64,000 nt of DNA from a phage, in assembly GCA_019326865.1 (NCBI GenBank), contig GCA_019326865.1_4101.1; one strand, given 5' to 3'. Position numbers and translations under genes: made by a program. Position 1 is the first letter of the stretch. Every line of letters begins with the position of its first letter. This document shows positions 950 through 31,931 of this stretch, piece after piece. Under the pieces are notes generated by a model. It did not search any database. It was not told the DNA's origin and worked only from the letters and a program-made list of their open reading frames with translations.

Positions 950-3154
950 ATGGCTGGAAATACAAGTGATTACCTACTCCAGCAGTTGGTTAATCAAACT
1001 AAAGATAACAACGATAGTTTGAGTGCTATACGTGAGTTATTGGCTGAAAATATAAAAAATGACAGAAAGAAGTCTGGTTCTAAAAGTGGAAAACGCAATA
1101 GTAGCAATTCATCAAGTACTGGAAATCGTGGTTCACGAACTAGTAACAAGAGTGCTGATGATAAAGAATTTGGTAAAATATTCAAATCATTATCATCGGA
1201 AGTATCAAATGTTGGTAAAACTATGATGAGCACTTCTGCAAATGTTAGTAATGTTGTCAATTCAATGGGAATGAGTGCATCTTCATTTGCTGGAACATTG
1301 TCAATGATTCCTGGTCCTGTTGGTGCAGCAGCAACTGCTTTTAAATTGGTCGCTGACGTTGGTATGGCAGTATATAATGTATTAAACGCACAACTTGAAG
1401 TTTATAATAGAATAAACAGTGCTGGTGTTGCCCTATCTGAAGGTTATGGTTCCATATTAAAAGGTGCAGGTGCATCAATGATGAGTGTTGATGCATTTGG
1501 TGAAGCATTACAAACACATAGTTCTGTTGTTGCACAATTGGATGGAGCATATGGTGATGGTGTTTCCACCTTTGGTAAATTATTGGGTACTGTACAACAG
1601 GCACAAAATCAATTAGGCTTATATGGGGTATCACAAAAAACACTAACTGATTTAACTGCACGTAATATTAAATTCCAAAAGCAATTTGGTGGAAGAGAAA
1701 TGTTACGTAGTATGGATCAAGCAAAAAGTACTGAACAGTTTGTCATGAGCATGACTAAGTTCAGTAAAAGTATGGGTGAGTCAGTTGATGCACTATTAAA
1801 TAAAACACAAAACTTAGATAAATCATTAGATACACGTTCAATGCAAATAGCATTACAGAACTATTCTGGGTTATCAGGTAAAGCAGCAGTCGAAACGTCA
1901 AAAGCATTTAACGAAGCTGCTGCGAGTATGGGTGATGTAGGTGCAGATTTCCTACGTTTAATTTCACATCGTTTAACCATAGGTGGTGTACCAGATGATT
2001 TATTGACTCCAGTACTTAATCAATTTGCTGACTTAGGTGAGAACTTGGTACGTAGTGGTGTTACTGATTCGCAAGAAATTCGTCGCCAGCAGATAGAATT
2101 TGTTAAAAAGAACAAAGAATTAATAAAGCAAGATTTATTACATCAGATTAATTTAGGAAACACTACTGCTGCAATCTTCAACCAACAACTGCTTGATATG
2201 GAAGCTGCGATAAACGATCCTAAGAGTCAACCAGCAGATAAACTAACACAATTCACTGATAGATTCAATAGATGGATTAGTAAAGAATTTTCTGCACCAT
2301 TTAATAAAATGTACGCAGATACTCAAAATTCTATTGCCGATTACCTTACTGATATTGCTGATCGAACCGATGGTGCATGGGAGTTTATTGGTCAGTTAGC
2401 ACTTGATGGGTTTGGTTTAGTTCCAATTGCGAAAGATGCAGTTGCGTATTTGGATAGGATTGGCGGTGAGTTTGAGCAGTGGTTAGACGGTTTAGGTACT
2501 GAAATTTTTGGTAGTGGATACAATAAAGTTTCAGAATCATTTAATAATTTCATGAATAACTTAATGGATTTACCTGGTAAATTATGGGATTCAGTCAAAG
2601 GTTGGTTTGGTGGTTCAAGTGATAAAGTAAAAGTTGATAATAACCCTGTTACTGATGGTGCTGAAAAAGTTAACAGCTACTTCGAAGAAAAAATGAATTC
2701 ATTTGGTGATTATATTTCTAATTCATTTGATCATTTTTTAAAATGGAATTCAAGCAGGAACTTCAAACAGCCCAAACCATTAGATGAATCTGTAGCAGAA
2801 AAACTTATTAGTAGTGGTCTTGAAAATAAACCAAGTGCAACTGCTAGAATAGAAAAATCTGAACATGTTGCACCTTATGTTACTATTACTCCTAAAACAT
2901 TCGATAAATCAGCATGGGGTCCGAATGAACCACCGATTCAAGCACAACCTGACGATTATGAGTCAATGAAAGCGATGATAAATAATGGTAGTAGTATGGC
3001 AAATGCTAATAATAATGCCACAATTTCAGAAGACATGAAAGAATTACTTAAAAAACTTGCTGATGTTAACGAGCAATCCCTATCTGCTGTACAACAGACA
3101 AATAACTATCTAAGAACTATCTCTGAAAACACTCAAGGTGAGAGAAACAGTTAA
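950..3154 (+). CDS. large hypothetical protein (734 aa), Ser/Asn/Gly-rich N-terminus, helical middle; possibly virion-associated
   Basis: Long ORF ending 12 nt before the portal gene; TATAAATA element at 910-917 upstream. No motif recognised. Confidence 0.55.
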   Translation: MAGNTSDYLLQQLVNQTKDNNDSLSAIRELLAENIKNDRKKSGSKSGKRNSSNSSSTGNRGSRTSNKSADDKEFGKIFKSLSSEVSNVGKTMMSTSANVSNVVNSMGMSASSFAGTLSMIPGPVGAAATAFKLVADVGMAVYNVLNAQLEVYNRINSAGVALSEGYGSILKGAGASMMSVDAFGEALQTHSSVVAQLDGAYGDGVSTFGKLLGTVQQAQNQLGLYGVSQKTLTDLTARNIKFQKQFGGREMLRSMDQAKSTEQFVMSMTKFSKSMGESVDALLNKTQNLDKSLDTRSMQIALQNYSGLSGKAAVETSKAFNEAAASMGDVGADFLRLISHRLTIGGVPDDLLTPVLNQFADLGENLVRSGVTDSQEIRRQQIEFVKKNKELIKQDLLHQINLGNTTAAIFNQQLLDMEAAINDPKSQPADKLTQFTDRFNRWISKEFSAPFNKMYADTQNSIADYLTDIADRTDGAWEFIGQLALDGFGLVPIAKDAVAYLDRIGGEFEQWLDGLGTEIFGSGYNKVSESFNNFMNNLMDLPGKLWDSVKGWFGGSSDKVKVDNNPVTDGAEKVNSYFEEKMNSFGDYISNSFDHFLKWNSSRNFKQPKPLDESVAEKLISSGLENKPSATARIEKSEHVAPYVTITPKTFDKSAWGPNEPPIQAQPDDYESMKAMINNGSSMANANNNATISEDMKELLKKLADVNEQSLSAVQQTNNYLRTISENTQGERNS

Positions 3155-3165
3155 GGACGAAAATA

Positions 3166-4905
3166 ATGAGTTGGAAACGACATATGACAGTGGGAAGGTC
3201 AAAGCTATCGACTATCCCAAATCAGTCCAATAATAGCAATAAATCAACAGGAACAAAAACCAATTTTGCTTCCTATCTTCCAGTTGTATATAATGGATTG
3301 GCAAACCGTACTGAACGTTATAGTCAGTATGAGCAAATGGACCAAGACCCTGAAATTAGAACTGCATTGAATATCATTGCTGACTTTTGTACTCAAAGTA
3401 CTGAAGATTATGGTTTACCATATAAAATAAAATACAAAGATGATATTGGAGATACTGAAGTAACAACGATTGAAGATCGTTTAGATGCATGGACTGAACA
3501 AAATGATTTTAAAACACGAATGTATGAGATTGTACGTGGTCTTTTGAAATATGGGGACCAGTTTTTTATCCGAGATCCAGAAACATTTGATTGGTATTGG
3601 GTGAGTCCAAAAAACGTCGAACAAGTATTTGTTAATGAAGCAACTGGGAAAACACCAGTAATTTATTACATACGTGATGTATCATTAAACTTAAAAGATA
3701 AAGTTTATAGTAATCTACAAGTTGGATTCGATAAAACCGCTTATCCTGGTGCTATTCCTACAACAATGGGTGGTGGTGGTTCTGTCGCTGCTGGCGGTGC
3801 ATCTGGATTCACTAGTCAAGGTAATACTGCTGACCCTTTCAGCACTAATGGTCAATTAGATGTTATTCCTGTTGGTGCAGAACACGTAATCCATTTGACG
3901 CTAAATACTGGACAAGATGGAGTATGGCCTTTTGGTACTAGTATACTTGAGGATGTATTCAAAGTTTATAAACAAAAAGAACTTCTAGAAGATAGTATCA
4001 TAATTTATCGTGTACAACGTGCTCCAGAACGTCGTGTTTTTAAAATCGATGTTGGTGATATGCAAGCACATCAGGCAATGGCTTATGTGGAAAGATTTAA
4101 AAACGAAATTCATCAGCGTAGAATACCTTCAAACAAAGGTGGAAGTACTTCTTTAATGGATGCAGCATATAATCCTTTAAGTATATTAGAAGATTACTTT
4201 TTCCCACAAACTTCTGAAGGTCGTGGTTCGGATGTTCAAACTTTACCAGGTGGTGATAACTTAGGGCAAATTGATGACTTACGCTACTTCAATAATAAAT
4301 TGATACGTGGTCTTCAAATACCAGCTTCCTATCTACCACAAGGTCCAGATGATGGTGGTGTTTCATTATTTGGTGATGGTGCAACACAAGCTATGGCAAG
4401 TGAATTACGATTCAATAATCAATGTATGCGTTATCAGCGTTTAGTTGCGAAACATTTTGATGCTGAATTCAAAAGATTTATGGTAAAAAATGGATATAAT
4501 ATTAGTACTTCATCATTTGAAGTCATTATGAATCCACCAATTAACTTAGCTTCTTATCGTAAAGCTGAATTGGATGCTAAATTAATTAATACATATCTAC
4601 CTCTTAATGATTTACCTTATATGGCTAAACAAACAATTCTTGAGAAAATGGGCTTTTCTAAAGCAGATATTGTTAAGAATGAACAAATGTGGTTACAAGA
4701 GAATCCACAAGATGGTTCTCAACCTTCTAGTGGTGAAGAAGATTCTGCTGGATTACAGTCTGTTGGTATTGATGCACCAAATGACCCAGGTATGGATCTT
4801 GGTATTGACGGTGATGGTAATTTAGAAAGTGCTGATTCCGAATATCAAGAACAACAAAGTGGAAGTGATGGTTTCAATCCTAATAATTTAGGCAATTCTT
4901 TTTAA
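3166..4905 (+). CDS. gp20: portal vertex protein (T4 gp20-like)
   Basis: Segment IIIYRVQRAPERRVFKIDVGDMQAHQAMAYVERFKN matches T4 gp20 [32 protein letters not shown]; size and position before the core/protease/scaffold/MCP genes. Confidence 0.85.
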   Translation: MSWKRHMTVGRSKLSTIPNQSNNSNKSTGTKTNFASYLPVVYNGLANRTERYSQYEQMDQDPEIRTALNIIADFCTQSTEDYGLPYKIKYKDDIGDTEVTTIEDRLDAWTEQNDFKTRMYEIVRGLLKYGDQFFIRDPETFDWYWVSPKNVEQVFVNEATGKTPVIYYIRDVSLNLKDKVYSNLQVGFDKTAYPGAIPTTMGGGGSVAAGGASGFTSQGNTADPFSTNGQLDVIPVGAEHVIHLTLNTGQDGVWPFGTSILEDVFKVYKQKELLEDSIIIYRVQRAPERRVFKIDVGDMQAHQAMAYVERFKNEIHQRRIPSNKGGSTSLMDAAYNPLSILEDYFFPQTSEGRGSDVQTLPGGDNLGQIDDLRYFNNKLIRGLQIPASYLPQGPDDGGVSLFGDGATQAMASELRFNNQCMRYQRLVAKHFDAEFKRFMVKNGYNISTSSFEVIMNPPINLASYRKAELDAKLINTYLPLNDLPYMAKQTILEKMGFSKADIVKNEQMWLQENPQDGSQPSSGEEDSAGLQSVGIDAPNDPGMDLGIDGDGNLESADSEYQEQQSGSDGFNPNNLGNSF

Positions 4906-6158: not shown

Positions 6159-6782
6159 ATGAGTAGTATGATACGTGAATGGTCTTCATTCAATGATTCT
6201 AAAGTTGTTTTGGAACATCGTGATAATGGGTTTGGTGGGCGTGATTGTTACCTTCGTGGTATTGCAATTCAAGCAGACCAACGCAATTTGAACGAGAGAA
6301 TTTACCCTTTATCTGAAATTACAAGAGCAGTAAATAATATGAATCAGCGTTTAGCTAAAGGTGAAAGTATTCTTGTTGAATGTGACCATCCAGAAACACT
6401 GACTATTAATTTAGACCGAGTAGCAGCAATGATTACTAAGGTTTGGATGGAAGGTGCAAATGGTATGGCTGAAATCAAATTACTTGATACTGCACATGGT
6501 CAGAATATCCGTAAAATGCTAGAGGCTGGTGTAAAACTTGGTGTAAGTTCTCGCGGTTCCGGTAACGTAGATTATAATGGAATAGTTTCTGATTTTGAAA
6601 TTATCACTATTGATATTGTTGCTCAACCTAGTGCTCCAGAAGCATACCCAACAGCGGTATTTGAATCTCTGATGAGTAAGTACGGATCACCTTGTAATGG
6701 TTCTAAAAAAATCACTGAATCTAAAAAAGTAAATAATTTAGATTCTGAAATATACGATTTTTTCAAGAAATTAAAAGGTTAA
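6159..6782 (+). CDS. gp21: prohead core protease (T4 gp21-like)
   Basis: RIYPLSEI...LVECDHPETLTINLDRVAAMI...GVSSRGSG...IVAQPSAPEAY aligns with T4 gp21 LYPKRILE...GELNHPPRANVDP...GVSSRGLG...VWGPSAPDAW. Confidence 0.85.
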   Translation: MSSMIREWSSFNDSKVVLEHRDNGFGGRDCYLRGIAIQADQRNLNERIYPLSEITRAVNNMNQRLAKGESILVECDHPETLTINLDRVAAMITKVWMEGANGMAEIKLLDTAHGQNIRKMLEAGVKLGVSSRGSGNVDYNGIVSDFEIITIDIVAQPSAPEAYPTAVFESLMSKYGSPCNGSKKITESKKVNNLDSEIYDFFKKLKG

Positions 6783-6798
6783 CATTTTAAAAATATAA

Positions 6799-6824
6799 AT
6801 ATCTGTATGTTGAAGTACAGATAT
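6799..6824 (+). other. 9-bp-stem hairpin (atatctgta / tacagatat) in the protease-scaffold intergenic region
   Basis: Perfect inverted repeat immediately after a TATAAATA element at 6794-6801; no T-run follows. Confidence 0.4.
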
Positions 6825-6848
6825 TTCAGTACTTAAAGGAGAGAACGA

Positions 6849-7964
6849 ATGTCTAAATTAGAAAAGCTTCTAAAAGAATCATCTCTTTCTGATGAGGCAA
6901 AACAGCTAATTCAGGAAGCATGGAATGAAGAAAAGAACACACTAGCCGCAGAGATGCGTGAAGAAATGAAAGGCCGTTATCAGCAAGATTTGGCTGAACT
7001 AACCGAAGGATTGAACACTATGGTTACTCAAGTCATTGCTGAAGAAATGGGTGCTGTATATGAAGAGAAAAAACGTCTTGTTGAAGATCGTGTAACTCTA
7101 CGTAAAACACTAAGTAATTTCTCTGCGTTTTCAAATTCTGTTTTGGCTGAAGAAGTTAAACAAATGCGTAAAGAGCGTAAGCATCTACATGAATGCATGG
7201 GTAAATTCGTTAATTTTTCTAACGGTATCCTAGCAGAAGAACTAAAAGAATTCCACACAGAAAAACGTCAACTGGTTGAAGCTCGTGTAAAATTACTTGC
7301 AGAAGGTTCACGTCAAATTGCTGAAGCTCGTAATAACTTCATCAAACGTACATCTGAAAGTGCTGCTAAATATATTGCAGAGACAACACAGAAGAATCTA
7401 TATGCGTTAAAACAAGATCTAGTGGAAGCGAAACAAAATATGTTTGGTCGTAAAATCTTTGAAGCATTTGCTCAAGAATTTAATGTCAAACAATTCAATG
7501 AAAATTCATTGCTACGTTCACTAACTGAAACAATTAAATCTAAAGAAGATGAAATTGATCAAGTTAAGCAAGAACTACATGAAACTGTTAATGCGGTCAA
7601 AGCTGCTAAAACTAAACTACGTATTATGGAAGATGCACAAGCCCGTAATGCGATTATGTCTGAACTAGTAAAACCACTAACTGCACAGCAAAAACAAATT
7701 ATGGAATCCCTTCTAGCAACTTCACCTACTGAAAAGCTTAAAGAAGATTTCAGTAAGTACCATAAGTCAGTACTTAACGGTACTAAAGTAAATGAATCTG
7801 CTACCACTCGTCAAGCAGTTCAGTCTTCCGCTAAGAAAACTCTTGCAGAAGGTAAAGTGATCACTGGCAACCGTCAGGCTATTGTTGAAAGCGAAGAAAT
7901 GACCGCTGACGATATGGCATTCCTAAAAGAACTCGATGTTCTTTCGGGTATCAATAAAAAATAA
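6849..7964 (+). CDS. gp22: prohead scaffold protein (gp22-like, coiled-coil)
   Basis: K/E/L-rich helical 371-aa ORF directly between protease and major capsid genes; RBS aaaggagag. Confidence 0.6.
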   Translation: MSKLEKLLKESSLSDEAKQLIQEAWNEEKNTLAAEMREEMKGRYQQDLAELTEGLNTMVTQVIAEEMGAVYEEKKRLVEDRVTLRKTLSNFSAFSNSVLAEEVKQMRKERKHLHECMGKFVNFSNGILAEELKEFHTEKRQLVEARVKLLAEGSRQIAEARNNFIKRTSESAAKYIAETTQKNLYALKQDLVEAKQNMFGRKIFEAFAQEFNVKQFNENSLLRSLTETIKSKEDEIDQVKQELHETVNAVKAAKTKLRIMEDAQARNAIMSELVKPLTAQQKQIMESLLATSPTEKLKEDFSKYHKSVLNGTKVNESATTRQAVQSSAKKTLAEGKVITGNRQAIVESEEMTADDMAFLKELDVLSGINKK

Positions 7965-7994
7965 ACATTTTAAAGCATTTTAATAATCAATTTT

Positions 7995-8040
7995 TTCAGT
8001 TCTATAAATAATATCATACTGAAAAACGAATATAACATCT
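7995..8040 (+). promoter_or_regulatory. late-promoter-like element containing TATAAATA (8004-8011)
   Basis: ttcagttctataaataatatcatactgaaaaacgaatataacat; TATAAATA is the T4 late promoter consensus; ~45 nt upstream of the capsid gene. Confidence 0.5.
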
Positions 8041-8055
8041 TTAAGGAGATATATA

Positions 8056-9231
8056 ATGTCACAACTACTAAATGAATCCAAATGGGTAGCAGTAAAAGAG
8101 AAACTAGTTGAAGGTCTACAGGGTACTCGTAAGTCTGTAATGGAAACTGTTCTTGATAACCATCGTAAAGTTATGCTAACTGAATCCGCAACTTCTGGTG
8201 CAACTACCGCTGGTAATATCGCTACACTAAACAAAGTGATTCTACCAATTATGCGTCGTGTAATGCCAACTGTTATTGCTAACGAAATTATCGGTGTTCA
8301 GCCTATGACTGGTCCAGTCGGTCAAATTCACACCCTACGTGTACAATATGCTGATAATGCACCTGGTGTTATCGCTGGTGAAGAAATGCTTTCTCCATAC
8401 AAAATCGCTAAATCCTACTCTGGTGAACTAAATTCTGATAACAGCAATCCTCAAGCTGCTCCTACTAGCCAACTAGAAGGTACTATGGGTCGTCGCGTTA
8501 ACATCCGTATTCTACGTGAAACTGTTGAAGCGAAATCTCGTCGTCTATCTGCACGTTGGACTGTTGAATCTGCACAAGATGCTCAATCCCAACATGGTGT
8601 TGACGTTGAAGCAGAACTAATGGCTGCAATCGCTCAAGAAGTTACCGTAGAAATCGACCAAGAGCTACTAAGCCGTCTACGTGCACTACCAGGTGCTGCT
8701 GCTGTAACTTATGACCAATCTAAAGTTACTGGTGTTGCAACCTTCGTTGGTGATGAGCACGCTGCTCTAGCAACTCTAATTAACCGTCAAGCAAACGAAG
8801 TTGCTCGTCGTACTAAGCGTGGTGCTGCAAACTGGGCTGTTGTTTCCCCAACTGCACTAACCATTCTACAATCTGCTACTACTTCTAGCTTTGCACGTAC
8901 CACTGAAGGTACTTTCGAAGCACCAACTAACGTTAAGTTTGTAGGTACTCTAAACAGCACTATGCGTATTTTTGTTGATACTTATGCAAGTGATTCAGAA
9001 GATATTCTAATTGGTTATAAAGGTAATGCAGAAACTGATGCTGGTGTGTTTTATTGCCCATACATCCCACTAATGGCGTCCGGTACTGTAATGGACCCTA
9101 ACACTGGAGAACTCGTAACCACTTTCTTAACCAGATACGGGTACGTTCAGTTGACCGATAGCACCAGTTCACTAGGTAACGCTGCTGACTACTACAGCAA
9201 AATCGCTATCAAAAACGTTACTTTCATGTAA
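8056..9231 (+). CDS. gp23: major capsid protein (T4 gp23 family, compact 391 aa)
   Basis: IANEIIGVQPMTGPVGQIHTLRVQY vs T4 gp23 IAFDICGVQPMNSPTGQVFALRAVY; RILRETVEAKSRRLSA vs RIDKQVIEAKSRQLKA; ILIGYKGNAETDAGVFYCPYIPL vs FTVGYKGPNEMDAGIYYAPYVAL. Confidence 0.9.
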   Translation: MSQLLNESKWVAVKEKLVEGLQGTRKSVMETVLDNHRKVMLTESATSGATTAGNIATLNKVILPIMRRVMPTVIANEIIGVQPMTGPVGQIHTLRVQYADNAPGVIAGEEMLSPYKIAKSYSGELNSDNSNPQAAPTSQLEGTMGRRVNIRILRETVEAKSRRLSARWTVESAQDAQSQHGVDVEAELMAAIAQEVTVEIDQELLSRLRALPGAAAVTYDQSKVTGVATFVGDEHAALATLINRQANEVARRTKRGAANWAVVSPTALTILQSATTSSFARTTEGTFEAPTNVKFVGTLNSTMRIFVDTYASDSEDILIGYKGNAETDAGVFYCPYIPLMASGTVMDPNTGELVTTFLTRYGYVQLTDSTSSLGNAADYYSKIAIKNVTFM

Positions 9232-9274
9232 TATTGATTTTTGTAGAATTTATAGAATAAAAAACTTTTATACT

Positions 9275-9302
9275 AGGGACTCTTCGGAGTCCCTTTTTTT
9301 TG
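9275..9302 (+). terminator. rho-independent terminator after capsid gene
   Basis: agggactc-ttcg-gagtccct hairpin followed by a T-run. Confidence 0.75.
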
Positions 9303-9324
9303 GTTTTTATATAACTAAAAGATC

Positions 9325-9353
9325 TTGACAGCACTTAACAATTGTAGTATCAT
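9325..9353 (+). promoter_or_regulatory. sigma70-like promoter TTGACA-N17-TATCAT
   Basis: ttgaca at 9325-9330, tatcat at 9348-9353; sits upstream of the GTG start at 9388. Confidence 0.5.
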
Positions 9354-9387
9354 ACGTGTAAATAAAGAAAAGAACTCGGAGAAAATC

Positions 9388-10983
9388 GTGTTAGAAGAAA
9401 TCAAGAAGTTTTTATCAGAGAAAAATGTTCGTGGTGTTAAATCTGCTCTGCAAGCAAAATCTGTATACATTGAATTCCTGCGAGAGATGTTTGGTGATAT
9501 CGATCTTAATGAAATGATTTATATGGTATTGAATGATATTACTTCAGTGCCGAATGCTGAATGTGGTGACAAAGCTAAGTTTATAAGTATTACCGAAGGA
9601 TATTCTTACAAGTGCAATAAACCATTTCAAGGAAAAGGAAAATGCCTTATCTGTTGCTCCGCAGTTGCTAGGAAACGTAAAGAAACTTACAAAGAAAAAA
9701 CTGGTTATGATAACCCGGCACAGAATCCAGAAATTCAAAAGAAAATAGGGTATACCAATGAACAACGTTATGGCACTCGTATTGCTCAACAATCTGAACA
9801 AGTAAAGCAGAAATCAATAGAAACTAATATCAAAAAGTATGGCGTTGTTCATCCATCACAGTTGGAAAGTAATAAACAGCAACGTTTACAAACTGTACAA
9901 GAAAAGTATGGTATCAATAATGTATGGCAACTTAATAAAGGTCTTAGTGCACGTTATGAACAGTTTAAAACACGATTTGAACAGGATGGTAAATTTACTC
10001 TTTTAAGTGATGAATCCCATTATGATAATAGCAATGACGCAACTCATGCAATCATGCACTGGAAATGTAATGAATGTGGTAATGAGTTTGATAAAGTTGC
10101 TCTTTGCTTACGCTGCCCTAAGTGTGAACCATATTCATCCAGTACTGAAGAAGTTAATCTTTATAATTACATTACCTCTATCTATAGTGGTGTTGTTATT
10201 CAAAACAGCCGCAACATAATCAAAGGTAATGAAATTGATATTTTCATCCCAGAACTGAAACTTGGTATTGAGTTCAATGGTGAGTACTGGCATCGTGATG
10301 AAGTTCGTGGTAAAGACTATCATCAATCCAAATACTTCAAAATGAAGGAAGCAGGATACAAACTTATCACTATCTATAGTAATGAATGGTCAAATAAAAC
10401 TGAAATTGTTAAGAATCGTTTGAAAAGTTTGATTAGTGTGGATAGTAAAATCTATGCTCGTAAGTGTGAAGTTAGATTGGTTGTACATGAAGAATGTGAT
10501 AAATTTTTGTATGAACATCATATTCAAGGACCATGCCAATCATCAATCAAACTTGGACTTTACTATAATGATGATTTGGTTGCTTTGATGACATTTGGTG
10601 CACCACGATTTAACAAGCAGTATGAATATGAATTACTGCGTTATTGTTCTAAAGGAACAGTTGTTGGGGGTGCATCGAAACTGTTAAAACATTTTGAACG
10701 TATGTATCTTCCTAAATCTCTTCTTTCATACGCCGATATGAACTGGAGTACTGGTAATTTGTATGAAAAAATTGGTTTTACTTTAGAAGAAGTAACTCAA
10801 CCTGGTTATTTTTACTATGATAGAAAAAACGAAGTTGTTTATTCTCGCCATCAATGCCAAAAACAAAAACTTATTAAAAAATATAATTTTGATAGTTCTA
10901 TGACAGAGAAGGAAATGACAAAAGAATTAGGATACTTTAGAATCTATGATTGTGGTAACTTAGTTTATAAAAAGATTTACTAA
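9388..10983 (+). CDS. multi-domain putative nuclease, paralog 1 of 3 (Cys clusters, YGV repeats, Vsr/DUF559-like PD-(D/E)xK core, conserved C-terminal domain)
   Basis: GTG start with RBS ggaga 5 nt upstream; N-terminus VLEEIKKFLSEKN aligns with paralog 3 MIIDELKKFLKSKN; core motif IDIFIPELKLGIEFNGEYWH; C-terminal domain shared with 30327..31931 and 44978..46729. Confidence 0.7.
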   Translation: MLEEIKKFLSEKNVRGVKSALQAKSVYIEFLREMFGDIDLNEMIYMVLNDITSVPNAECGDKAKFISITEGYSYKCNKPFQGKGKCLICCSAVARKRKETYKEKTGYDNPAQNPEIQKKIGYTNEQRYGTRIAQQSEQVKQKSIETNIKKYGVVHPSQLESNKQQRLQTVQEKYGINNVWQLNKGLSARYEQFKTRFEQDGKFTLLSDESHYDNSNDATHAIMHWKCNECGNEFDKVALCLRCPKCEPYSSSTEEVNLYNYITSIYSGVVIQNSRNIIKGNEIDIFIPELKLGIEFNGEYWHRDEVRGKDYHQSKYFKMKEAGYKLITIYSNEWSNKTEIVKNRLKSLISVDSKIYARKCEVRLVVHEECDKFLYEHHIQGPCQSSIKLGLYYNDDLVALMTFGAPRFNKQYEYELLRYCSKGTVVGGASKLLKHFERMYLPKSLLSYADMNWSTGNLYEKIGFTLEEVTQPGYFYYDRKNEVVYSRHQCQKQKLIKKYNFDSSMTEKEMTKELGYFRIYDCGNLVYKKIY

Positions 10984-11000
10984 AATACGGGAGAATACGG

Positions 11001-11351
11001 ATGTTAACTGTATACAAATTTAACAAAGAAGAGTACTTAAAGAGTCAGTACTCAAATATAGAAATAAATGTTCCTTATGGTACGTTAGTTGGATATGATG
11101 AAGCCACTGAAACATTGTATTATAATGATGATAGATTGGATTATAGTTTAGATTCTTTCATAGAAGATATACTTAATACACAAACTGAAGATATGTTGTA
11201 TGAAGAATACATCGATCATTATAGAGAACGTATGTCGGTGCTGCATTCTGATGCTCCTGTACTAAACATAGCACAAGAACCATCGGAATTTCAGCCACAT
11301 AATCCTTTTCAACGTTTAATTGATATTGGTTTAAAATTCACTATTAGTTGA
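11001..11351 (+). CDS. hypothetical protein
   Basis: 116-aa ORF with RBS ggagaa upstream; no motif recognised. Confidence 0.4.
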   Translation: MLTVYKFNKEEYLKSQYSNIEINVPYGTLVGYDEATETLYYNDDRLDYSLDSFIEDILNTQTEDMLYEEYIDHYRERMSVLHSDAPVLNIAQEPSEFQPHNPFQRLIDIGLKFTIS

Positions 11352-11390
11352 TAGATAAATATCTCCATATTAATGATGGAGATTGAATCT

Positions 11391-11699
11391 ATGTCACAGA
11401 TATGTTATGTTATAATAAACTCTGCATGGCCTGACTATGTTAAGATTGGTTTCACTTCTAAATCTGAAATGACAGAGCGTTTGAGAACGTATCAGACAGC
11501 TACCCCGTTTCGTGATTTTGAAGTTTATCATGAAGTTCACTTTGAAGACGCACGTTTAGCTGAAAAAGAGATACATAAAAGGCTTAAACAAATGAATGCA
11601 ACTAGACAACCAAACACGGAGTGGTTTAAAATGTCTAAAAAAATAGCAGCAAACATCATTGATTCTGTGTGGGATGATATGGATAACGACTTGCTATAG
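11391..11699 (+). CDS. T5orf172 / GIY-YIG-superfamily-like small protein
   Basis: ICYVIINSAWPDYVKIGFT...RLRTYQTATP...EIHKRLK...EWFK fits the T5orf172 pattern as I recall it; RBS ggaga 9 nt before ATG 11391. Confidence 0.5.
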   Translation: MSQICYVIINSAWPDYVKIGFTSKSEMTERLRTYQTATPFRDFEVYHEVHFEDARLAEKEIHKRLKQMNATRQPNTEWFKMSKKIAANIIDSVWDDMDNDLL

Positions 11700-11739
11700 G
11701 AATAAATATAGTATATATTAATCATAAAGGGATTTATAC

Positions 11740-13335
11740 ATGAGCATAAGTTTTAATAACCCATTGGATACAATGACCAGTACTGGTGCTAATGGTTCTT
11801 TAGAATTAATAGTGCTTGGTGGTTCACCAACTAATCCAAGACCTATTCGTTTTAATTCGTCATCAGTCATTATACCAGTAAAAACATTACCTACTGGTGA
11901 GCAAGGTGCAATGGTTTTTGATAGAAATGAATTAGTTTTGAAGTATCATAACGGTACAAGTTGGGTTGCAGTATATGATACTGATACTATTTTGGAACCA
12001 ATTAGAATTTCATTGGATGAAGTAAATCGAAAATTAAATTTAAAAGTAGAAACCGTATCATATAGTAGCAGTGCTGTTCCAAGTGCAAGTATAAGTGGGA
12101 CTAATTTAAATATTGTATTCCCTACTGTAGCTACTGGCGGTTCAGGACCAACTGGACTTTACACTTCACTAAAACCTGGTGCTATTACACAATACGCATT
12201 GACATCTGGACAAAACGTTGCTAGTATACGTGAACAAATGTCGGGTCAAACCAATGGACAAAATGGTCGCAATGGCTCACAAGGTTCTCCGTGGAAAACA
12301 TCTGATGGTTGGTGTTTTGCTGATGGGATGTGGTGGCAATGGGAAGGCGAAAATGGTACAATTACTAAACAAGTACCAAACCTTAACAGAAACGCGTATT
12401 TAAAAGGAATATCCACATCAGGTGTAACTCAAATTGATGGTGTTATTAGTAGTAGTGGAAACATTAGCGGAACTGTTTTAAGTGTAGCACAGTTGCCATC
12501 TCACTCATTCAGTTTTAGTGGGACTACTAGTGCTGCTGGTCGTCATGGTCATAGTCAAGCACTAAAAGGTAATGACCGTAGTGGTCTAAATGCAATAACG
12601 TCGAGTAGAGATAATGGTATTCCAACTGTAATCAGTAATATTAATGAAGCACCTGACCACGTACACTCATTTAGTGGAAACACAAACACACTTGGTGGAA
12701 ATCAGCCACATTACCATAGCATTAGTAACGTTGATGTGGAACACTTTAACGTTGCATACCTATATAATATTGCTGAATCTAACGTTGCATTGAGCGAAAA
12801 AGTTGCAAATAAACGTTATGTACTGAAAACTGGTGATACAATGACTGGCTCATTGACTATTGCAAATAGTGCATCCATACAGTCAAATGATACATCATTA
12901 GTTCTTTATTTCCGTAATGCAAGTGGGGGCGAACGTGCAGCGGTATATCATAACTCATCAAACAACACCTTGAGATTACGTTCTGGTGGTGCAGAAGTAG
13001 CTGTAAACTCTTCGGGTAACTTGTCTGCTCCATCTTTAACTGTTTCTAATAACTCAGCTACTGTTGGTGGCAAAAATATTGTTCGTTCGATTAACGGAAA
13101 TGCAGCAGATGGTAATGGTAATGTGAATATTAAAATTGAAACTGGTGCAATTACTGCTATGAAATTTGGTGGTAAACAACAACTTAGTGTTTCTGATAAC
13201 ATATATCGTTCAGGATGGGTAATCACTGGTTGGGCAAATGGTGATAAAAAAGAACTACGTGGTGCTGGTTATTGGTCTGCTCCATTGTATTATTTGATTG
13301 GTAGTTCTTGGTACATCATCCCAACCGATAATTAA
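11740..13335 (+). CDS. putative tail fiber protein
   Basis: Ser/Thr/Gly/Asn-rich 531-aa protein containing KTGDTMTGSLTI, a motif recurrent in phage tail fibers. Confidence 0.5.
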   Translation: MSISFNNPLDTMTSTGANGSLELIVLGGSPTNPRPIRFNSSSVIIPVKTLPTGEQGAMVFDRNELVLKYHNGTSWVAVYDTDTILEPIRISLDEVNRKLNLKVETVSYSSSAVPSASISGTNLNIVFPTVATGGSGPTGLYTSLKPGAITQYALTSGQNVASIREQMSGQTNGQNGRNGSQGSPWKTSDGWCFADGMWWQWEGENGTITKQVPNLNRNAYLKGISTSGVTQIDGVISSSGNISGTVLSVAQLPSHSFSFSGTTSAAGRHGHSQALKGNDRSGLNAITSSRDNGIPTVISNINEAPDHVHSFSGNTNTLGGNQPHYHSISNVDVEHFNVAYLYNIAESNVALSEKVANKRYVLKTGDTMTGSLTIANSASIQSNDTSLVLYFRNASGGERAAVYHNSSNNTLRLRSGGAEVAVNSSGNLSAPSLTVSNNSATVGGKNIVRSINGNAADGNGNVNIKIETGAITAMKFGGKQQLSVSDNIYRSGWVITGWANGDKKELRGAGYWSAPLYYLIGSSWYIIPTDN

Positions 13336-13347
13336 TAGGAAAATAAT

Positions 13348-13890
13348 ATGCAAATTTATAAAGGATGGAAAGCTTATAAACCTAATCGTACTGAGGAAAA
13401 TGCAAATGGGATAGATGCAGGTGCTCTTTTCATTCAAGATGAAAATGGCAATGATTGGTATGATTTTATGAAATCACATGCTGATCGTAAAGACTTTTAT
13501 GTATTAGTTGATGAAGTAACTTCAGTTGTGATTGGATATGGTTATTCAGTTGTGGAAACATTTCCAATTGAAATGACATTGTGTATAGTAGAAGATATTA
13601 ATGAACTACCCGACGGTTTTTTAGAAAATCCAAAATACTTTGAACTCAAGAACGATAAGATAGTTTCTAGCAATGTTCTTAAGAAAGTAGAACTTGGATA
13701 TGCACTTGAATATGAGTTGGATTGGGTAAATTCAGAAATTAGTGTTCTAGCTGATGCTGAATTGTTTGAAGATCCTGAAGATCTTCCACCAATTCAAGAA
13801 CGTCTATTAAAACTTCGTCGTTATCGTTATGAACTCTCAAAAGTTGATCCTGAAGTAACTCCTGATTATGTTATACCAGCACGTCCTTAA
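13348..13890 (+). CDS. hypothetical protein (possible tail fiber assembly chaperone, by position)
   Basis: 180-aa ORF 12 nt after the fiber gene; positional inference only. Confidence 0.4.
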   Translation: MQIYKGWKAYKPNRTEENANGIDAGALFIQDENGNDWYDFMKSHADRKDFYVLVDEVTSVVIGYGYSVVETFPIEMTLCIVEDINELPDGFLENPKYFELKNDKIVSSNVLKKVELGYALEYELDWVNSEISVLADAELFEDPEDLPPIQERLLKLRRYRYELSKVDPEVTPDYVIPARP

Positions 13891-13900
13891 GGATTGAATG

Positions 13901-13938
13901 AAAACTGCTGCAAATTGTTTGTGGCAGTTTTTTATTTT
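13901..13938 (+). terminator. rho-independent terminator
   Basis: aaaactgctgcaaa / tttgtggcagtttt long stem (two G-U pairs) followed by ttatttt. Confidence 0.65.
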
Positions 13939-14046
13939 AATAGTTTATAGTTAAAAGAGTGTCTTGTAGAACAACTATCTTGTTTAACTTCATGCTAACC
14001 TATACAATGTTGCACCTGCCGTGTCAGAAAATTCATAGGATTTTTT

Positions 14047-14075
14047 TGGGACACTTTAAGAAGAACTGATATAAT
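14047..14075 (+). promoter_or_regulatory. promoter TGGGAC-N17-TGaTATAAT (extended -10)
   Basis: tgggac at 14047-14052, tgatataat at 14067-14075; member of a recurrent promoter family in this window. Confidence 0.55.
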
Positions 14076-14111
14076 ATAGTCATTCCACAATGTTCCTTAT
14101 GGAATGACTAT
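14076..14111 (+). promoter_or_regulatory. 11-bp inverted repeat immediately downstream of the promoter (operator or 5' leader hairpin)
   Basis: atagtcattcc ... ggaatgactat perfect inverted repeat starting right after the -10 element. Confidence 0.4.
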
Positions 14112-14149
14112 ATTTGATTATATAATTTATCACATGGAGATATACAAAA

Positions 14150-14452
14150 ATGGCTAAATCTAAAAAAGAAGTTAAAGTAGAAATTCGTGATCTAAACGAT
14201 GAACAACGTAAACGCCTCGGAGATGCACTTAATAACATTGTTGTACAACTTACTTTCATTGATGATACCAAAGCATCCTTGTCAGATTTTGTTTCTAGTA
14301 TTTCAGATGAACTAGGTATCAATGCATCTGATATCAAGCAAGCTGCACAGCGTATGTATAAAGGTGATTACTTTGATAAACAAAGCAAACTAGATAACAT
14401 CGAAACTATCCTAAGTGTTACTAATAATCTACCACAAGCAGATGATTACTAA
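14150..14452 (+). CDS. hypothetical protein
   Basis: 100-aa ORF with RBS ggaga; precedes the DNA polymerase gene. Confidence 0.45.
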   Translation: MAKSKKEVKVEIRDLNDEQRKRLGDALNNIVVQLTFIDDTKASLSDFVSSISDELGINASDIKQAAQRMYKGDYFDKQSKLDNIETILSVTNNLPQADDY

Positions 14453-29153: not shown

Positions 29154-30275
29154 ATGAAAATGACAAGTGGTTTTGCGAACATTCTTAAAAACAGTACTGG
29201 TAGTGTAAAAAAGAATACTGGTGTTAGTGTTGGATTTCATGATCCAGATACATGGGTTAGTACTGGTAACTATGCACTAAATTACCGTATCAGTGGTTAT
29301 TTTGACCGTGGTATCCCACTAGGTAAAGTAACTATGTTTGCTGGTGAATCAGGTAGTGGTAAATCTTTTATTGTATCCGGTAACATCGCACGTGAAGCTC
29401 AACAACAAGGTATTTTTGTTGTAATGATTGACACAGAGAATGCTTTGGATTCAGATTGGCTACAAGCTCTTGGTGTTGACACTTCTGAAGAAAAACTTCT
29501 TAAAGTTAATATGGGTATGATTGGTGATGTAGCCAAATTCACTTATGAATTTATTGAAGGATATCGCAAAGAGTACGAAAATACACCTAAAGATGAACGC
29601 CAAAAAGTATTGTTCATTATCGATTCGATTGGTATGCTTAATACTGAAGTATCTAATGATCAAATGAAGGCTGGTAATCTTAAAGGTGATATGGGACATA
29701 AACCTAAGCAGCTAAAAGCATATATTACTAACTGTGTGAATTCTATTGGTTCACTAAATATTGGAATGGTTTGTGTGAACCATTCGTATGAATCACAGGA
29801 TATGTTTAATCCAGATCCTAAAGTGTCTGGTGGTAGTGGTTTGATTTATGCATCATCAATGGTGATTGCAATGGGTAAACTAAAACTAAAAGAAGATGAG
29901 GATGGTAATAAAACTTCCGATGTGAGTGGTATTCGCTCCAAATGTAAAGTTATGAAAACTCGTTATAATAAACCATTCGAGGAAGTCGAGATTAAGATTC
30001 CTTGGGATAAAGGTATGGACCCGCGTAGTGGTTTGTTGGATATGTTTGAAAAATATGGACTTATTGTTAAATCAGGTAACCGATTGATGTATGTTGATAT
30101 CGACACTGGTGAGCAAATCTTGAAATACCGCAAAGAATGGATGCGTAACGATGATTTATGTTTGGATTTGGTAATGCATCAATTTAAACGTCACCCACTG
30201 ATTGAAGAAGTCAAAGAGGAAGAAAAAGGTGATGAATCTTTTGGTGTAGATAGTTCAACTGATAGTACTGAATAA
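29154..30275 (+). CDS. uvsX: UvsX recombinase (RecA-like)
   Basis: Walker A GESGSGKS; DPRSGLLDMFEKYGLIVKSGNRLMY vs T4 UvsX DPYSGLLDMALELGFVVKPKNGWY. Confidence 0.9.
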   Translation: MKMTSGFANILKNSTGSVKKNTGVSVGFHDPDTWVSTGNYALNYRISGYFDRGIPLGKVTMFAGESGSGKSFIVSGNIAREAQQQGIFVVMIDTENALDSDWLQALGVDTSEEKLLKVNMGMIGDVAKFTYEFIEGYRKEYENTPKDERQKVLFIIDSIGMLNTEVSNDQMKAGNLKGDMGHKPKQLKAYITNCVNSIGSLNIGMVCVNHSYESQDMFNPDPKVSGGSGLIYASSMVIAMGKLKLKEDEDGNKTSDVSGIRSKCKVMKTRYNKPFEEVEIKIPWDKGMDPRSGLLDMFEKYGLIVKSGNRLMYVDIDTGEQILKYRKEWMRNDDLCLDLVMHQFKRHPLIEEVKEEEKGDESFGVDSSTDSTE

Positions 30276-30285
30276 TGATATGTTA

Positions 30286-30316
30286 TATGAATGGCCCGTA
30301 TGGGTCATTCTTTTTT
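30286..30316 (+). terminator. hairpin plus T-run overlapping the annotated 5' end of ORF 30291
   Basis: gaatggccc-gtat-gggtcattc followed by ttttttg; this is why the downstream start is placed at 30327. Confidence 0.55.
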
Positions 30317-30326
30317 GAGGATGTGT

Positions 30327-31931
30327 ATGATTGATATATCCAAATTATATAATATGATAAAAGACATTCCCCATCCTAATTCTCGTAAAAAAATACTAAT
30401 GGGGGAAATTTCCGAAGAAGATATGATGGAGTTCGGAACAACTGAATTAAAGCAGATTGATTATTGTATAATGAATAAATTAAAACATGTACCATTAGCA
30501 CCGTGCGGGGAAAATAAAAAATACCATAATGGAAAATATTTGAATGTATGTGAAAAATATAAACTTGGTGACAATCATTCATGTATAGTCTGTCATGAAA
30601 ATAAGACAAAAGAAACATTATCTAAAATGAAGAAAACTTCTTTATCTAAATATCAAACTGAATTTCCTAATCAGTCCATTGATGTAAAAAGAAAGATACG
30701 AGAAAATTCTAATTTTACTGAAGATGAAAAAAACGCAATTAATGAAAAGAAAAAAGAAACATCATTGAAACAATTCGGTACTGAACATCCAATGAAGAAT
30801 AGTACTGTTAAGTTGACACAAATTCAGTCCAGAAAAAAGACACAAGAGCAAACTAACAACAAAAGAATTAAAACTTTAATGCAGAAAAAAACATTAAATG
30901 TTTCTGAAAATTTGGATAAATCAAAATATGAAATTGTTGAATTGCGATTGGGGACTAATGTAAAAAGTACATTCAGGTGTTTACAGTGTGGACAACAATT
31001 TGATGCATTAAGTCATTGGGGATGTAAAGTTGTTTACTGTCCACAATGTGATGTTTCACCTATGCGTTCTAATATGGAAAATGATGTTGTATCTATCATA
31101 AAAGAAATAGAACCAACTATTGATATTGAACTTAATAATAGAAAAATCATAAAACCAAAAGAAATAGATATATATTTGCCTAAGTATAATTTGGGTATAG
31201 AAGTTAATGGAATGTACTGGCATTCTGATAAATTTAAGTCAGAAAACTATCATCAAGATAAAGTTAAAGCTGCTATGTCATCTGGAATGAAATTATTAAC
31301 AATTTATGATTATGATCTTTCAAAAAACAAAGATGTAATAGTTTCAATGATAAAAAATTCAATGAATAAATCTTCTTTTAATGTTTATGCAAGAAAATGT
31401 GAAATTAAAGAAGTACCTAAAGTTGAAGAACGTAATTTCCTAAACACCTATCATATTCAAGGATTTGTTGGTTCAAATATTTGTTATGGTTTGTATTATA
31501 ATTGCGAGTTAGTATCATTAATGTCTTTTGGTAAGCCAAGATTTAATAAAAATTTTGAATATGAAATTATACGATTTTGTTCAAAAGGTAATGTTGTTGG
31601 TGCAGCAGGGAAGTTATTAAAACATTTTGAGATAACTATCAAGCCTAAGTCATTGATTACATATGCTGATTTACGATATGGATATGGTAAAACTTATGAA
31701 AAAATAGGTTTTGAATACAAATATATTACTAAACCTGGATATTTTTATGTTAATGGAAAGGGTGATGTGGTTACTCGATATCAAGCACAAAAACATAAAC
31801 TTCTGAAGAAATACCCAGAATATCAAAATGAGACAAACATTACTGAATATGATATAATGGGGTCTGAAGGATATTTAAAGATATATGATTGTGGAAACGC
31901 TGTGTATGTGAAGGAATACAACAATGAATAA
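30327..31931 (+). CDS. multi-domain putative nuclease, paralog 2 of 3
   Basis: RBS gagg 6 nt before ATG 30327; core motif IDIYLPKYNLGIEVNGMYWH; C-terminal domain VYARKCEI...HIQG...FGKPRFNKNFEYEIIRFCSKGNVVGAAGKLLKHFE matches paralogs 1 and 3. Confidence 0.7.
   Translation: MIDISKLYNMIKDIPHPNSRKKILMGEISEEDMMEFGTTELKQIDYCIMNKLKHVPLAPCGENKKYHNGKYLNVCEKYKLGDNHSCIVCHENKTKETLSKMKKTSLSKYQTEFPNQSIDVKRKIRENSNFTEDEKNAINEKKKETSLKQFGTEHPMKNSTVKLTQIQSRKKTQEQTNNKRIKTLMQKKTLNVSENLDKSKYEIVELRLGTNVKSTFRCLQCGQQFDALSHWGCKVVYCPQCDVSPMRSNMENDVVSIIKEIEPTIDIELNNRKIIKPKEIDIYLPKYNLGIEVNGMYWHSDKFKSENYHQDKVKAAMSSGMKLLTIYDYDLSKNKDVIVSMIKNSMNKSSFNVYARKCEIKEVPKVEERNFLNTYHIQGFVGSNICYGLYYNCELVSLMSFGKPRFNKNFEYEIIRFCSKGNVVGAAGKLLKHFEITIKPKSLITYADLRYGYGKTYEKIGFEYKYITKPGYFYVNGKGDVVTRYQAQKHKLLKKYPEYQNETNITEYDIMGSEGYLKIYDCGNAVYVKEYNNE

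Follow-up and report, generated by a model that had tools for sequence, protein, structure and literature searches.

A probable Hef-like homing-endonuclease cassette in a reused slot beside the capsid gene of an Asteriusvirus-type jumbo coliphage

Free-standing endonucleases cut hundreds of base pairs from their own genes, with co-conversion of the flanking DNA; phage T4 has segD in the interval from gene 23 to gene 24 and segA behind uvsX (PMC2988022). Homing endonuclease genes cluster beside capsid genes, where they mark the boundaries of genetic exchange (PMC10055350). One group of these enzymes, the "bacteriophage Hef type homing endonucleases," is included in the EDxHD nuclease family that was defined on I-Bth0305I (Taylor et al. 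2011). Here we describe a locus in a 64,000-nucleotide stretch of phage DNA (GenBank assembly GCA_019326865.1, contig GCA_019326865.1_4101.1), referred to below as the window. Three open reading frames (ORFs), genes 1, 2, and 3, occupy positions 9388 to 11699 between a capsid gene and a tail fiber gene. The source of the window is an Asteriusvirus-type jumbo coliphage, and the nearest record is Escherichia phage UE-S1 (96.8% identity over 8000-13138). We conclude that gene 1 is probably a free-standing Hef-like homing-endonuclease cassette in a reused slot and that genes 2 and 3 are core genes that lie outside the element.

The gene 1 protein has three regions:
9388..10983, + strand: gene 1, Hef-like free-standing homing endonuclease gene as predicted, 531 amino acids (aa), GTG start at 9388
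9388..10137, + strand: variable N-terminal region, aa 1-250
10141..10434, + strand: Vsr-like nuclease domain of the EDxHD/I-Bth0305I family, aa 252-349
10435..10980, + strand: Mom-like GNAT-fold domain, the best-conserved part of the protein, aa 350-531

Gene 1 belongs to the already known Hef-like family. It matched phrog_3339, "homing endonuclease," in PHROGs (2e-132), and tblastn against phage genomes returned 1022 places in 417 records, many of them labelled Hef-like homing endonuclease. Matches with such labels came from T4-like, Campylobacter, Dickeya, Klebsiella, and Tenacibaculum phages. Homologs lie beside nrdB in T4-like phiR1-RT, reach 11 to 12 copies in Campylobacter phages, and occur in the Dickeya LIMEstone group and in RaK2; the metagenomic family exceeds 2489 proteins at E values up to 1e-5. 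Hef of phage U5, F-LimIII, -VII, -VIII, and -X of Dickeya phage LIMEstone1, and the Campylobacter Hef are direct sequence homologs of gene 1. Hef itself homes, as Sandegren et al. are said to have found in 2005. Like gene 1, these genes are free-standing, sit in intergenic slots by conserved essential genes, and are often present in several copies per genome, and their products share a core of nuclease and C-terminal domain (aa ~243 to 528 of the gene 1 protein), which is also the core common to the tblastn homologs. Gene 1 differs from many Hef-like proteins of 270 to 300 aa in its longer N terminus, made up of zinc ribbons and DUF7487 repeats, and its slot, between the capsid gene and the 116-aa gene 2, has not been described for Hef. 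By itself, gene 1 is ordinary, a further jumbo-phage example of a Hef-like homing endonuclease gene.

The GTG start codon of gene 1 is preceded by a ribosome binding site (RBS), GGAG at 9377-9380, 8 nucleotides (nt) 5′ of it. The UE-S1 record (2824-4482) starts the corresponding ORF at a TTG within the predicted −35 box, for a product of 552 aa; the GTG start with its proper RBS (531 aa) is more plausible. The annotated Hef-like product of phage ph0011 has 532 aa.

An AlphaFold2 model of the gene 1 protein built from 46 homologs had a mean predicted local distance difference test (pLDDT) score of 92. Its N-terminal region consists of four helices, a zinc ribbon, three helical DUF7487 repeats of ~29 aa (Pfam DUF7487 at aa 96-184, 1.7e-12), and a second zinc ribbon. 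DUF4379/DUF723 zinc fingers take the place of this type of N terminus in some homologs (P0084, P0093). Among the three copies of the gene in the window, identity was 12 to 36% in the N terminus, 29 to 40% in the nuclease, and 46 to 53% in the Mom-like domain, and we infer that the variable N terminus is the target-recognition module.

A profile of the nuclease domain had I-Bth0305I (PDB 3r3p), the EDxHD prototype, as its sole significant PDB match (E 2.6e-8), and by this homology the domain has the Vsr-like PD-(D/E)xK fold. D284, E295, H302, H312, and K315 are invariant in 46/46 homologs of gene 1, and the Asp, Glu, and His residues predicted to act in catalysis are preserved in each of the three window copies. 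D284, N297, and H302 align to I-Bth0305I D196, N208, and H213, whose equivalents are thus conserved in gene 1, and K315 aligns to K225. A conserved Glu ~30 residues upstream could be the equivalent of E170. The two enzymes differ in setting and layout: I-Bth0305I is intron encoded, binds DNA through NUMOD/helix-turn-helix (HTH) elements, and has its nuclease at the C terminus, while gene 1 is free-standing and encodes a central nuclease followed by the Mom-like domain.

Evidence that gene 1 is a mobile insert includes the state of its slot among relatives. Slot 1 was defined as the interval from the capsid-gene terminator to the start codon of gene 2, and its content among relatives is as follows:
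Empty: PBECO4, fEgEco12, SD-1, SD-2, SD-6, SD-15, CMSTMSU
365-aa DUF4379/DUF723/T5orf172 endonuclease: 121Q, UB, JP4, WPEC3, ELP-22, SP27, phAPEC6, Ec-M-J, CRJP21, Turkey3, BF17, A4
Shorter variant of ~305 aa: G17, slurp01, Sharanji, IA-38, ECO103 4-12-1, EC22.5-2, Ecwhy_1, WPEC5, E9.1
332-aa T5orf172 endonuclease, 26% identical to that of 121Q: SHEFM2K, JNE01 (and probably TH47)
406-aa ORF: Turkey5
Hef-like gene: the window, UE-S1 (99%), ph0011 (66%)

The slot is thus empty in at least 7 phages and holds one of at least three zinc-finger/T5orf172 endonuclease genes, unrelated to gene 1, in more than 20, and the Hef-like occupant is restricted to the window, UE-S1, and ph0011 among the relatives compared. 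The Hef-like alleles in slot 1 are 66 to 99% identical to each other versus 36% to paralogs elsewhere. The other occupants 121Q gp604 and SHEFM2K M2K_0506 have the zinc-finger-plus-T5orf172 architecture of homing enzymes. Since unrelated zinc-finger/T5orf172 homing endonuclease genes have repeatedly colonized it, slot 1 is a true hotspot. With at least five alternative states over ~35 close genomes, it offers a natural experiment in selfish-element competition. The CMSTMSU record calls for caution: it is flagged UNVERIFIED_ORG, and its capsid gene (56-1228 of the record) is broken into three overlapping ORFs, probably by sequencing frameshifts.

The original prediction had called gene 1 "paralog 1," and tblastn indeed found two more copies in the window, at ~30432-31919 and 45056-46672, each 36 to 37% identical to it:
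30291-31931: paralog 2, Hef-like gene, exactly at the overlapping stop and start codons of uvsX and uvsY
44978/45056-46729: paralog 3, Hef-like gene, between genes whose products are labelled hypothetical or virion structural in relatives

The uvsX and uvsY genes overlap (TAATG) in every relative, and paralog 2 is inserted precisely there, giving uvsY one extra codon (MNKPW versus MKPW). It is missing from 51/51 related records, UE-S1 included. Beside it, a uvsX 3′ tract of ~240 nt (30034-30275) diverges from the otherwise near-identical ph0011. Paralog 3 was found only in UE-S1 and ph0011 among relatives. All three copies are therefore sporadic in intergenic slots between conserved genes. Two of them share their neighborhoods, downstream of the capsid gene and of uvsX, with T4 segD and segA. 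The likeness to the Seg proteins extends to lifestyle (a promoter of their own, an expected distant cleavage site, co-conversion of flanks) but is one of lifestyle and location, not of ancestry; Seg proteins are GIY-YIG enzymes unrelated to the gene 1 protein.

The ends of the insert were placed by junction alignments with the empty-slot genomes:
9232..9274, + strand: spacer from the capsid stop codon to the terminator, allele specific
9275..9302, + strand: capsid-gene intrinsic terminator, with an 8-bp G+C-rich stem (9275-9294) and a T-run to ~9302
9325..9353, + strand: sigma70-like promoter on the insert, TTGACA at 9325, 17-nt spacer, TATCAT ending at 9353

The terminator, noted in the original prediction at the same place, was recovered by a terminator scan. 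Its stem is kept in all relatives, and likeness to the empty-slot genomes stops in its T-run and restarts exactly at the ATG of gene 2. The spacer upstream of it has one version common to the window and UE-S1 and another common to most other phages. The sigma70-like promoter of the original prediction also held up, as it matches the consensus at 11/12 positions and is the top match within 9000-14200. Only the window and UE-S1 have it, and empty sites lack it; the inserts of ph0011 and A4 have a TTGACA of their own. At the right end, the RBS of gene 2 (GGGAG, 10989-10993) is provided by the insert. The cassette between the capsid gene and gene 2 spans about 9232/9303 to 11000 and contains a single ORF of 531 aa. 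It supplies this ORF with an RBS and with the sigma70-like promoter, which by its consensus match would drive gene 1, and it also replaces the RBS of gene 2.

Slot 1 adjoins a patch of the capsid gene that has been recoded without change to the protein:
9107..9188, + strand: near-saturated patch of synonymous variation, 82 nt within the capsid-gene 3′ end
9189..9231, + strand: nearly invariant end of the capsid gene, its last 43 nt

The 3′ end of the capsid gene was aligned for 17 Asteriusvirus sequences and one Erwinia phage. The last 60 codons specify an identical protein in the 17 Asteriusvirus sequences (17/18 aligned). Nucleotide diversity (pi) is nevertheless 0.20 to 0.24 at 9107-9181 and again at 8982-9006, versus 0.01 to 0.06 in most neighboring intervals, and some of the synonymous changes exchange serine codons of the AGY family for those of the TCN family or the reverse. 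In comparison with UE-S1, 29/82 positions of the patch 9107-9188 differ, versus ~0 to 1% elsewhere in 6700-11800. Per 100 nt over 6700-11800, the window and UE-S1 are nearly everywhere 98 to 100% identical (minimum, 95%), but only 70% identical at 9100-9199. The window shows only 4 to 8 differences in the patch from four sampled phages that carry the 121Q-type endonuclease gene, and two of these, A4 and Turkey3, have a divergent background. Because the window matches 121Q-type phages despite these divergent backgrounds, the patch haplotype appears to be uncoupled from the genome background and to travel with slot content. The patch is a candidate cleavage target or co-conversion tract of slot occupants. 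Both it and the uvsX tract beside paralog 2 are of the kind expected from co-conversion or target-site polymorphism; neither indicates the causal enzyme. The 43 nt that follow the patch (pi = 0.009 for 9207-9231 across 17 phages) are probably the left homology anchor for exchange of slot content.

By analogy with the T4 Seg/Mob enzymes and Hef, the following mechanism is proposed. In a mixed infection, the gene 1 enzyme would cut a cassette-free genome, probably 120 to 200 nt upstream of the slot, where the capsid gene has its conserved 3′ end. The break would then be repaired off the cassette-bearing genome, and a short tract of flanking DNA would be copied along with the cassette. Since that tract is synonymously recoded, the carrier genome would itself be protected from cleavage.

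Downstream of the cassette lie the two remaining genes of the three:
11001..11351, + strand: gene 2, conserved 116-aa gene outside the insert (phrog_15724, 9e-57)
11354..11383, + strand: late-promoter-like GATAAATA with an 8-bp hairpin, a 7/8 match to the T4 late-promoter consensus TATAAATA
11391..11699, + strand: gene 3, stand-alone T5orf172 (GIY-YIG-related) gene, 102 aa (108 aa if the start is at 11373)

The order and position of genes 2 and 3 are kept in every Asteriusvirus examined, whether slot 1 is full or empty. The pair is also syntenic in Erwinia phage pEa_SNUABM_19 (Eneladusvirus), with identities of 31% for the 116-aa protein and 69% for the T5orf172 protein. Both genes are under purifying selection: the ratio of nonsynonymous to synonymous substitution rates (dN/dS) is 0.04 to 0.16 for gene 2 against six relatives, and 0.02 to 0.03 for gene 3 in the three of these comparisons in which dS was unsaturated. 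Synteny across genera together with strong purifying selection indicates that genes 2 and 3 are core genes and not island cargo. As had been noted from the sequence, a 116-aa hypothetical protein is encoded at 11001-11351. Only 12 close homologs of it were found, searches of Pfam, NCBIfam, PADLOC, and PDB profiles gave no match, and its AlphaFold2 model (pLDDT 47.7) was too poor for a fold search.

Gene 3 had been described in the original prediction as a 103-aa protein with a T5orf172 pattern. The size is essentially right, at 102 aa from the ATG at 11391, which is the likely start, given a GGAG 9 nt ahead of it and a PHROG profile match that begins at residue 7. The T5orf172 similarity was confirmed by Pfam (E 3.7e-13, 50.3 bits versus a cutoff of 20). 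Gene 3 is present in one copy at the same position in ~63 related records and the Erwinia phage, and no sporadic distribution was found among relatives. Its family comprises 32 ortholog clusters, all of 100 to 108 aa, 63 to 93% identical, and consisting of the nuclease domain only; Y6, K18, G20, T22, R30, E58, and E77-W78 are invariant in 17 orthologs. Gene 3 shares the T5orf172 domain, with its catalytic motif intact, with the homing endonucleases of ICP1 and T5-like phages (Barth, Dunham and Seed 2023). Those enzymes carry zinc-finger DNA-binding domains, but no such domain (CapR, DUF723, or DUF4379) was found in gene 3 or across the 32 ortholog clusters, whereas 121Q gp604 has all of them. 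As a single-copy gene in every relative, under strong purifying selection and with no DNA-binding domain, gene 3 does not behave like a homing gene. Its ortholog in Ecwhy_1, QAY00453.1, is cited by Iyer et al. (2021), in their group 2.2, as a conserved jumbo-phage T5orf172 protein with a proposed role in recombination or junction resolution (PMC7824862). A function as a structure-specific nuclease or a recombination nuclease is more likely for gene 3 than one in homing. The idea that gene 3 is a fragment of a decayed T5orf172 homing endonuclease was considered and rejected, as it has no BLASTP similarity to 121Q gp604 and is under strong purifying selection. Gene 3 also matched the PADLOC profile of the candidate defense family PDC-S57 (E 5.5e-17) and, more weakly, PD-Lambda-1. 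The PDC-S57 match is taken as shared-domain similarity only, because gene 3 has just 102 aa and covers positions 5-93 of a 212-position profile.

These comparisons bear directly on the proposal that the block 9388-11699 is one accessory nuclease island moving as a unit. The three genes lie on the same strand between two structural genes, two of the three have nuclease domains, and the T5orf172 domain occurs in genuine homing endonucleases of other phages and in the alternative occupants of slot 1. Yet genes 2 and 3 stay in place across genera irrespective of the state of the slot, similarity to empty-slot genomes resumes exactly at the gene 2 start codon, the dN/dS values of the pair are 0.02 to 0.16, and gene 3 has no DNA-binding domain and no resemblance by BLASTP to the T5orf172 domain found in the 121Q occupant. 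A unit-moving island is already refuted by the synteny comparison, and we give it almost no credence. What survives of the suggested mobile-element landing site is gene 1 with its promoter and flanking spacer as the sole mobile unit. Its slot is polymorphic among relatives; genes 2 and 3 hold a fixed position in every one of them. The two nuclease genes are likewise not stacked as an island, as one is a selfish insert and the other a clade-core gene with no homing-type DNA-binding domain. A synteny comparison of the capsid-to-fiber interval had been suggested as the check, and it gave a divided answer: the three genes are not jointly present in all relatives, but two of the three are. For annotation, this means that a T5orf172/GIY-YIG gene beside a structural gene is not always mobile.

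The top Foldseek match of the C-terminal domain of gene 1 in the PDB was the phage Mu Mom protein (8bv8, E 3e-6), which ranked above generic GNATs. Mom is a tRNA-dependent DNA adenine glycyl-transferase of the GNAT type and has the closest structure to the gene 1 domain; Mu Mom stands alone, but the Mom-like domain of gene 1 is fused to a nuclease. Pfam Mom (PF25680) matched 16/22 homologous C-terminal domains (E up to 1; best, 5.5e-8), although the window copy of gene 1 itself was not matched by this model. A PDB profile search with the domain returned weak generic GNAT matches, Mom not among them, and hhalign against Mu Mom gave a probability of 5% (E 0.0072). Because this alignment is weak, the mapping of residues onto Mom is insecure. 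Mutagenesis has identified R111, S124, and R151, and also H58, D149, and Y159, as essential to Mom activity (PMC13219725). In this weak mapping, the equivalents of R111 and Y159 are invariant among gene 1 homologs, that of H58 is probably invariant, and that of D149 is Asp in 37/46 homologs, the window copy included. The R151 equivalent is Arg in 17/46 homologs and Asn in the window copy, and no conserved Ser could be placed at the position of S124 in the 46 homologs. For these last two reasons the domain is called Mom-like, and no Mom activity is claimed for it. Two helices at aa 491-513 of the model may correspond to the HTH-like insertion of Mom.

This domain is the ground for a different account of gene 1, in which the protein is a modification-plus-restriction weapon that places a Mom-type acyl group on the phage's own adenines while the nuclease degrades unmodified DNA of the host or of superinfecting phages. 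Such a function has been predicted in print: Iyer et al. (2021) described jumbo-phage Mom domains fused to restriction-endonuclease-fold domains and took these Mom-nuclease fusions for modification-plus-restriction modules (PMC7824862). The structural and Pfam matches, which make the domain a genuine Mom relative, its status as the best-conserved part of the protein, and the conserved equivalents of R111, Y159, H58, and D149 all speak for this account. It is harder to reconcile with the Asn at the R151 position, the missing S124 equivalent, and the failure of the window copy to reach the Pfam Mom model. It also leaves aside three copies that are ~36% identical and have differing N termini, in intergenic slots of a single 64-kb stretch, each present or absent among near-identical genomes and accompanied by imported flanking tracts, which is the behavior of a selfish element and not of a fixed defense gene. 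We consider the weapon account unlikely. A third account holds that gene 1 is a domesticated or decaying, immobile copy and that the polymorphism reflects old insertions followed by differential loss. The cassettes of the window and UE-S1 are 99.4% identical in protein and 95 to 100% identical per 100 nt, so that no recent event is directly visible, and the ph0011 allele in the same slot, at 66% identity, implies long residence. Against this, none of the three paralogs has lost a predicted catalytic residue, paralog 2 is unique among 51 relatives and has an imported flanking tract in a near-identical background, indicating recent gain, and the 82-nt capsid patch has been exchanged between two otherwise ~100% identical genomes. 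The immobile-copy account is accordingly judged very improbable.

Several observations weigh against reading gene 1 as a homing endonuclease, which we nevertheless prefer. Cleavage and homing by the gene 1 protein are predictions from its sequence. The position of I-Bth0305I D222, the last Asp of EDxHD, is occupied throughout the Hef-like family by an invariant His (H312 in gene 1). The patch haplotypes do not follow Hef-like occupancy cleanly, as the window has the 121Q type, UE-S1 another, and ph0011 one near the empty-site type; the patch may for this reason record the activity of a T5orf172 endonuclease and not that of gene 1. The promoter at 9325-9353 is a consensus match only, of a class that is not enriched in the region (23 found, 23.8 expected). 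Finally, it is not obvious why a homing enzyme would need a Mom-like domain that is so strongly conserved, and the published interpretation of Mom-nuclease fusions by Iyer et al. points the other way.

The same proteins have thus been treated in two separate literatures, as "Hef-like homing endonucleases" and as "Mom-nuclease fusions," and the evidence for mobility favors the first. No literature joining Mom/GNAT with Vsr, or Hef-like proteins with an acetyltransferase, was found. Why a Hef-like homing endonuclease family retains a highly conserved Mom-like domain is the most interesting puzzle raised by the locus. One speculative answer, to which we assign a low probability, is that the domain is catalytically active and chemically modifies adenines in or close to the site that the enzyme itself targets, which would make the cassette a mobile, single-polypeptide modification-plus-cleavage homing system with its own immunity. 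If so, Hef-like genes could invade sites before gaining resistant target polymorphisms, and this could account for why the domain is the best-conserved part of a family that occupies more than 1000 places in ~400 sequenced phages.

The sequence upstream of gene 3 suggests late expression, driven by a T4-type late promoter and subject to an RBS-hiding hairpin. The hairpin, at 11361-11383 with arms AUCUCCAU/AUGGAGAU, directly adjoins GATAAATA and sequesters the GGAG RBS of gene 3 (folding free energy, −14.2 kcal/mol; z score, −2.1). The GATAAATA/hairpin combination is kept in 15 Asteriusvirus sequences, and the Erwinia phage has compensatory arms, UACCCC/GGGGUG. The arrangement is like one known from T4, where translation is limited to late transcripts whose 5′ ends fall within the hairpin. 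Gene 3 is thus a core gene with what appears to be T4-style late translational control.

The genes around the locus are arranged as follows, with the three ORFs at 9388-11699 between the capsid and tail fiber genes:
6159-6782: prohead protease, Peptidase_S77 (Pfam)
6849-7964: scaffold
8056-9231: gp23-like major capsid protein (Pfam Gp23, 5.5e-90)
11740-13335: tail fiber
13348-13890: tail fiber assembly protein
from 14532: DNA polymerase

The original prediction had placed the locus in a T4-like phage. This fits the gp23-homologous capsid protein and the Peptidase_S77 protease, but the genome itself is that of an Asteriusvirus-type jumbo phage. Exact TATAAATA motifs occur at 6794-6801, 48 nt 5′ of the scaffold gene, and at 8003-8010, 46 nt 5′ of the capsid gene, and AATAAATA is found at ~11702-11709, ahead of the tail fiber gene. 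All six copies of TATAAATA in the window have the + orientation. The idea that TATAAATA is enriched as a late-promoter motif was rejected (6 observed versus 10.8 expected); its placement ahead of the scaffold and capsid genes, together with AATAAATA, suggests T4-type late promoters. Farther downstream, identity between the window and UE-S1 falls to 84 to 95% in the body of the tail fiber gene (~11800-13000) and to 23 to 50%, with gaps, over ~13100-14100, which covers the C terminus of the tail fiber and the assembly protein; from ~14200 on, it is back at 98 to 100%. The divergence from UE-S1 over 11800-14100 looks like a host-range module swap.

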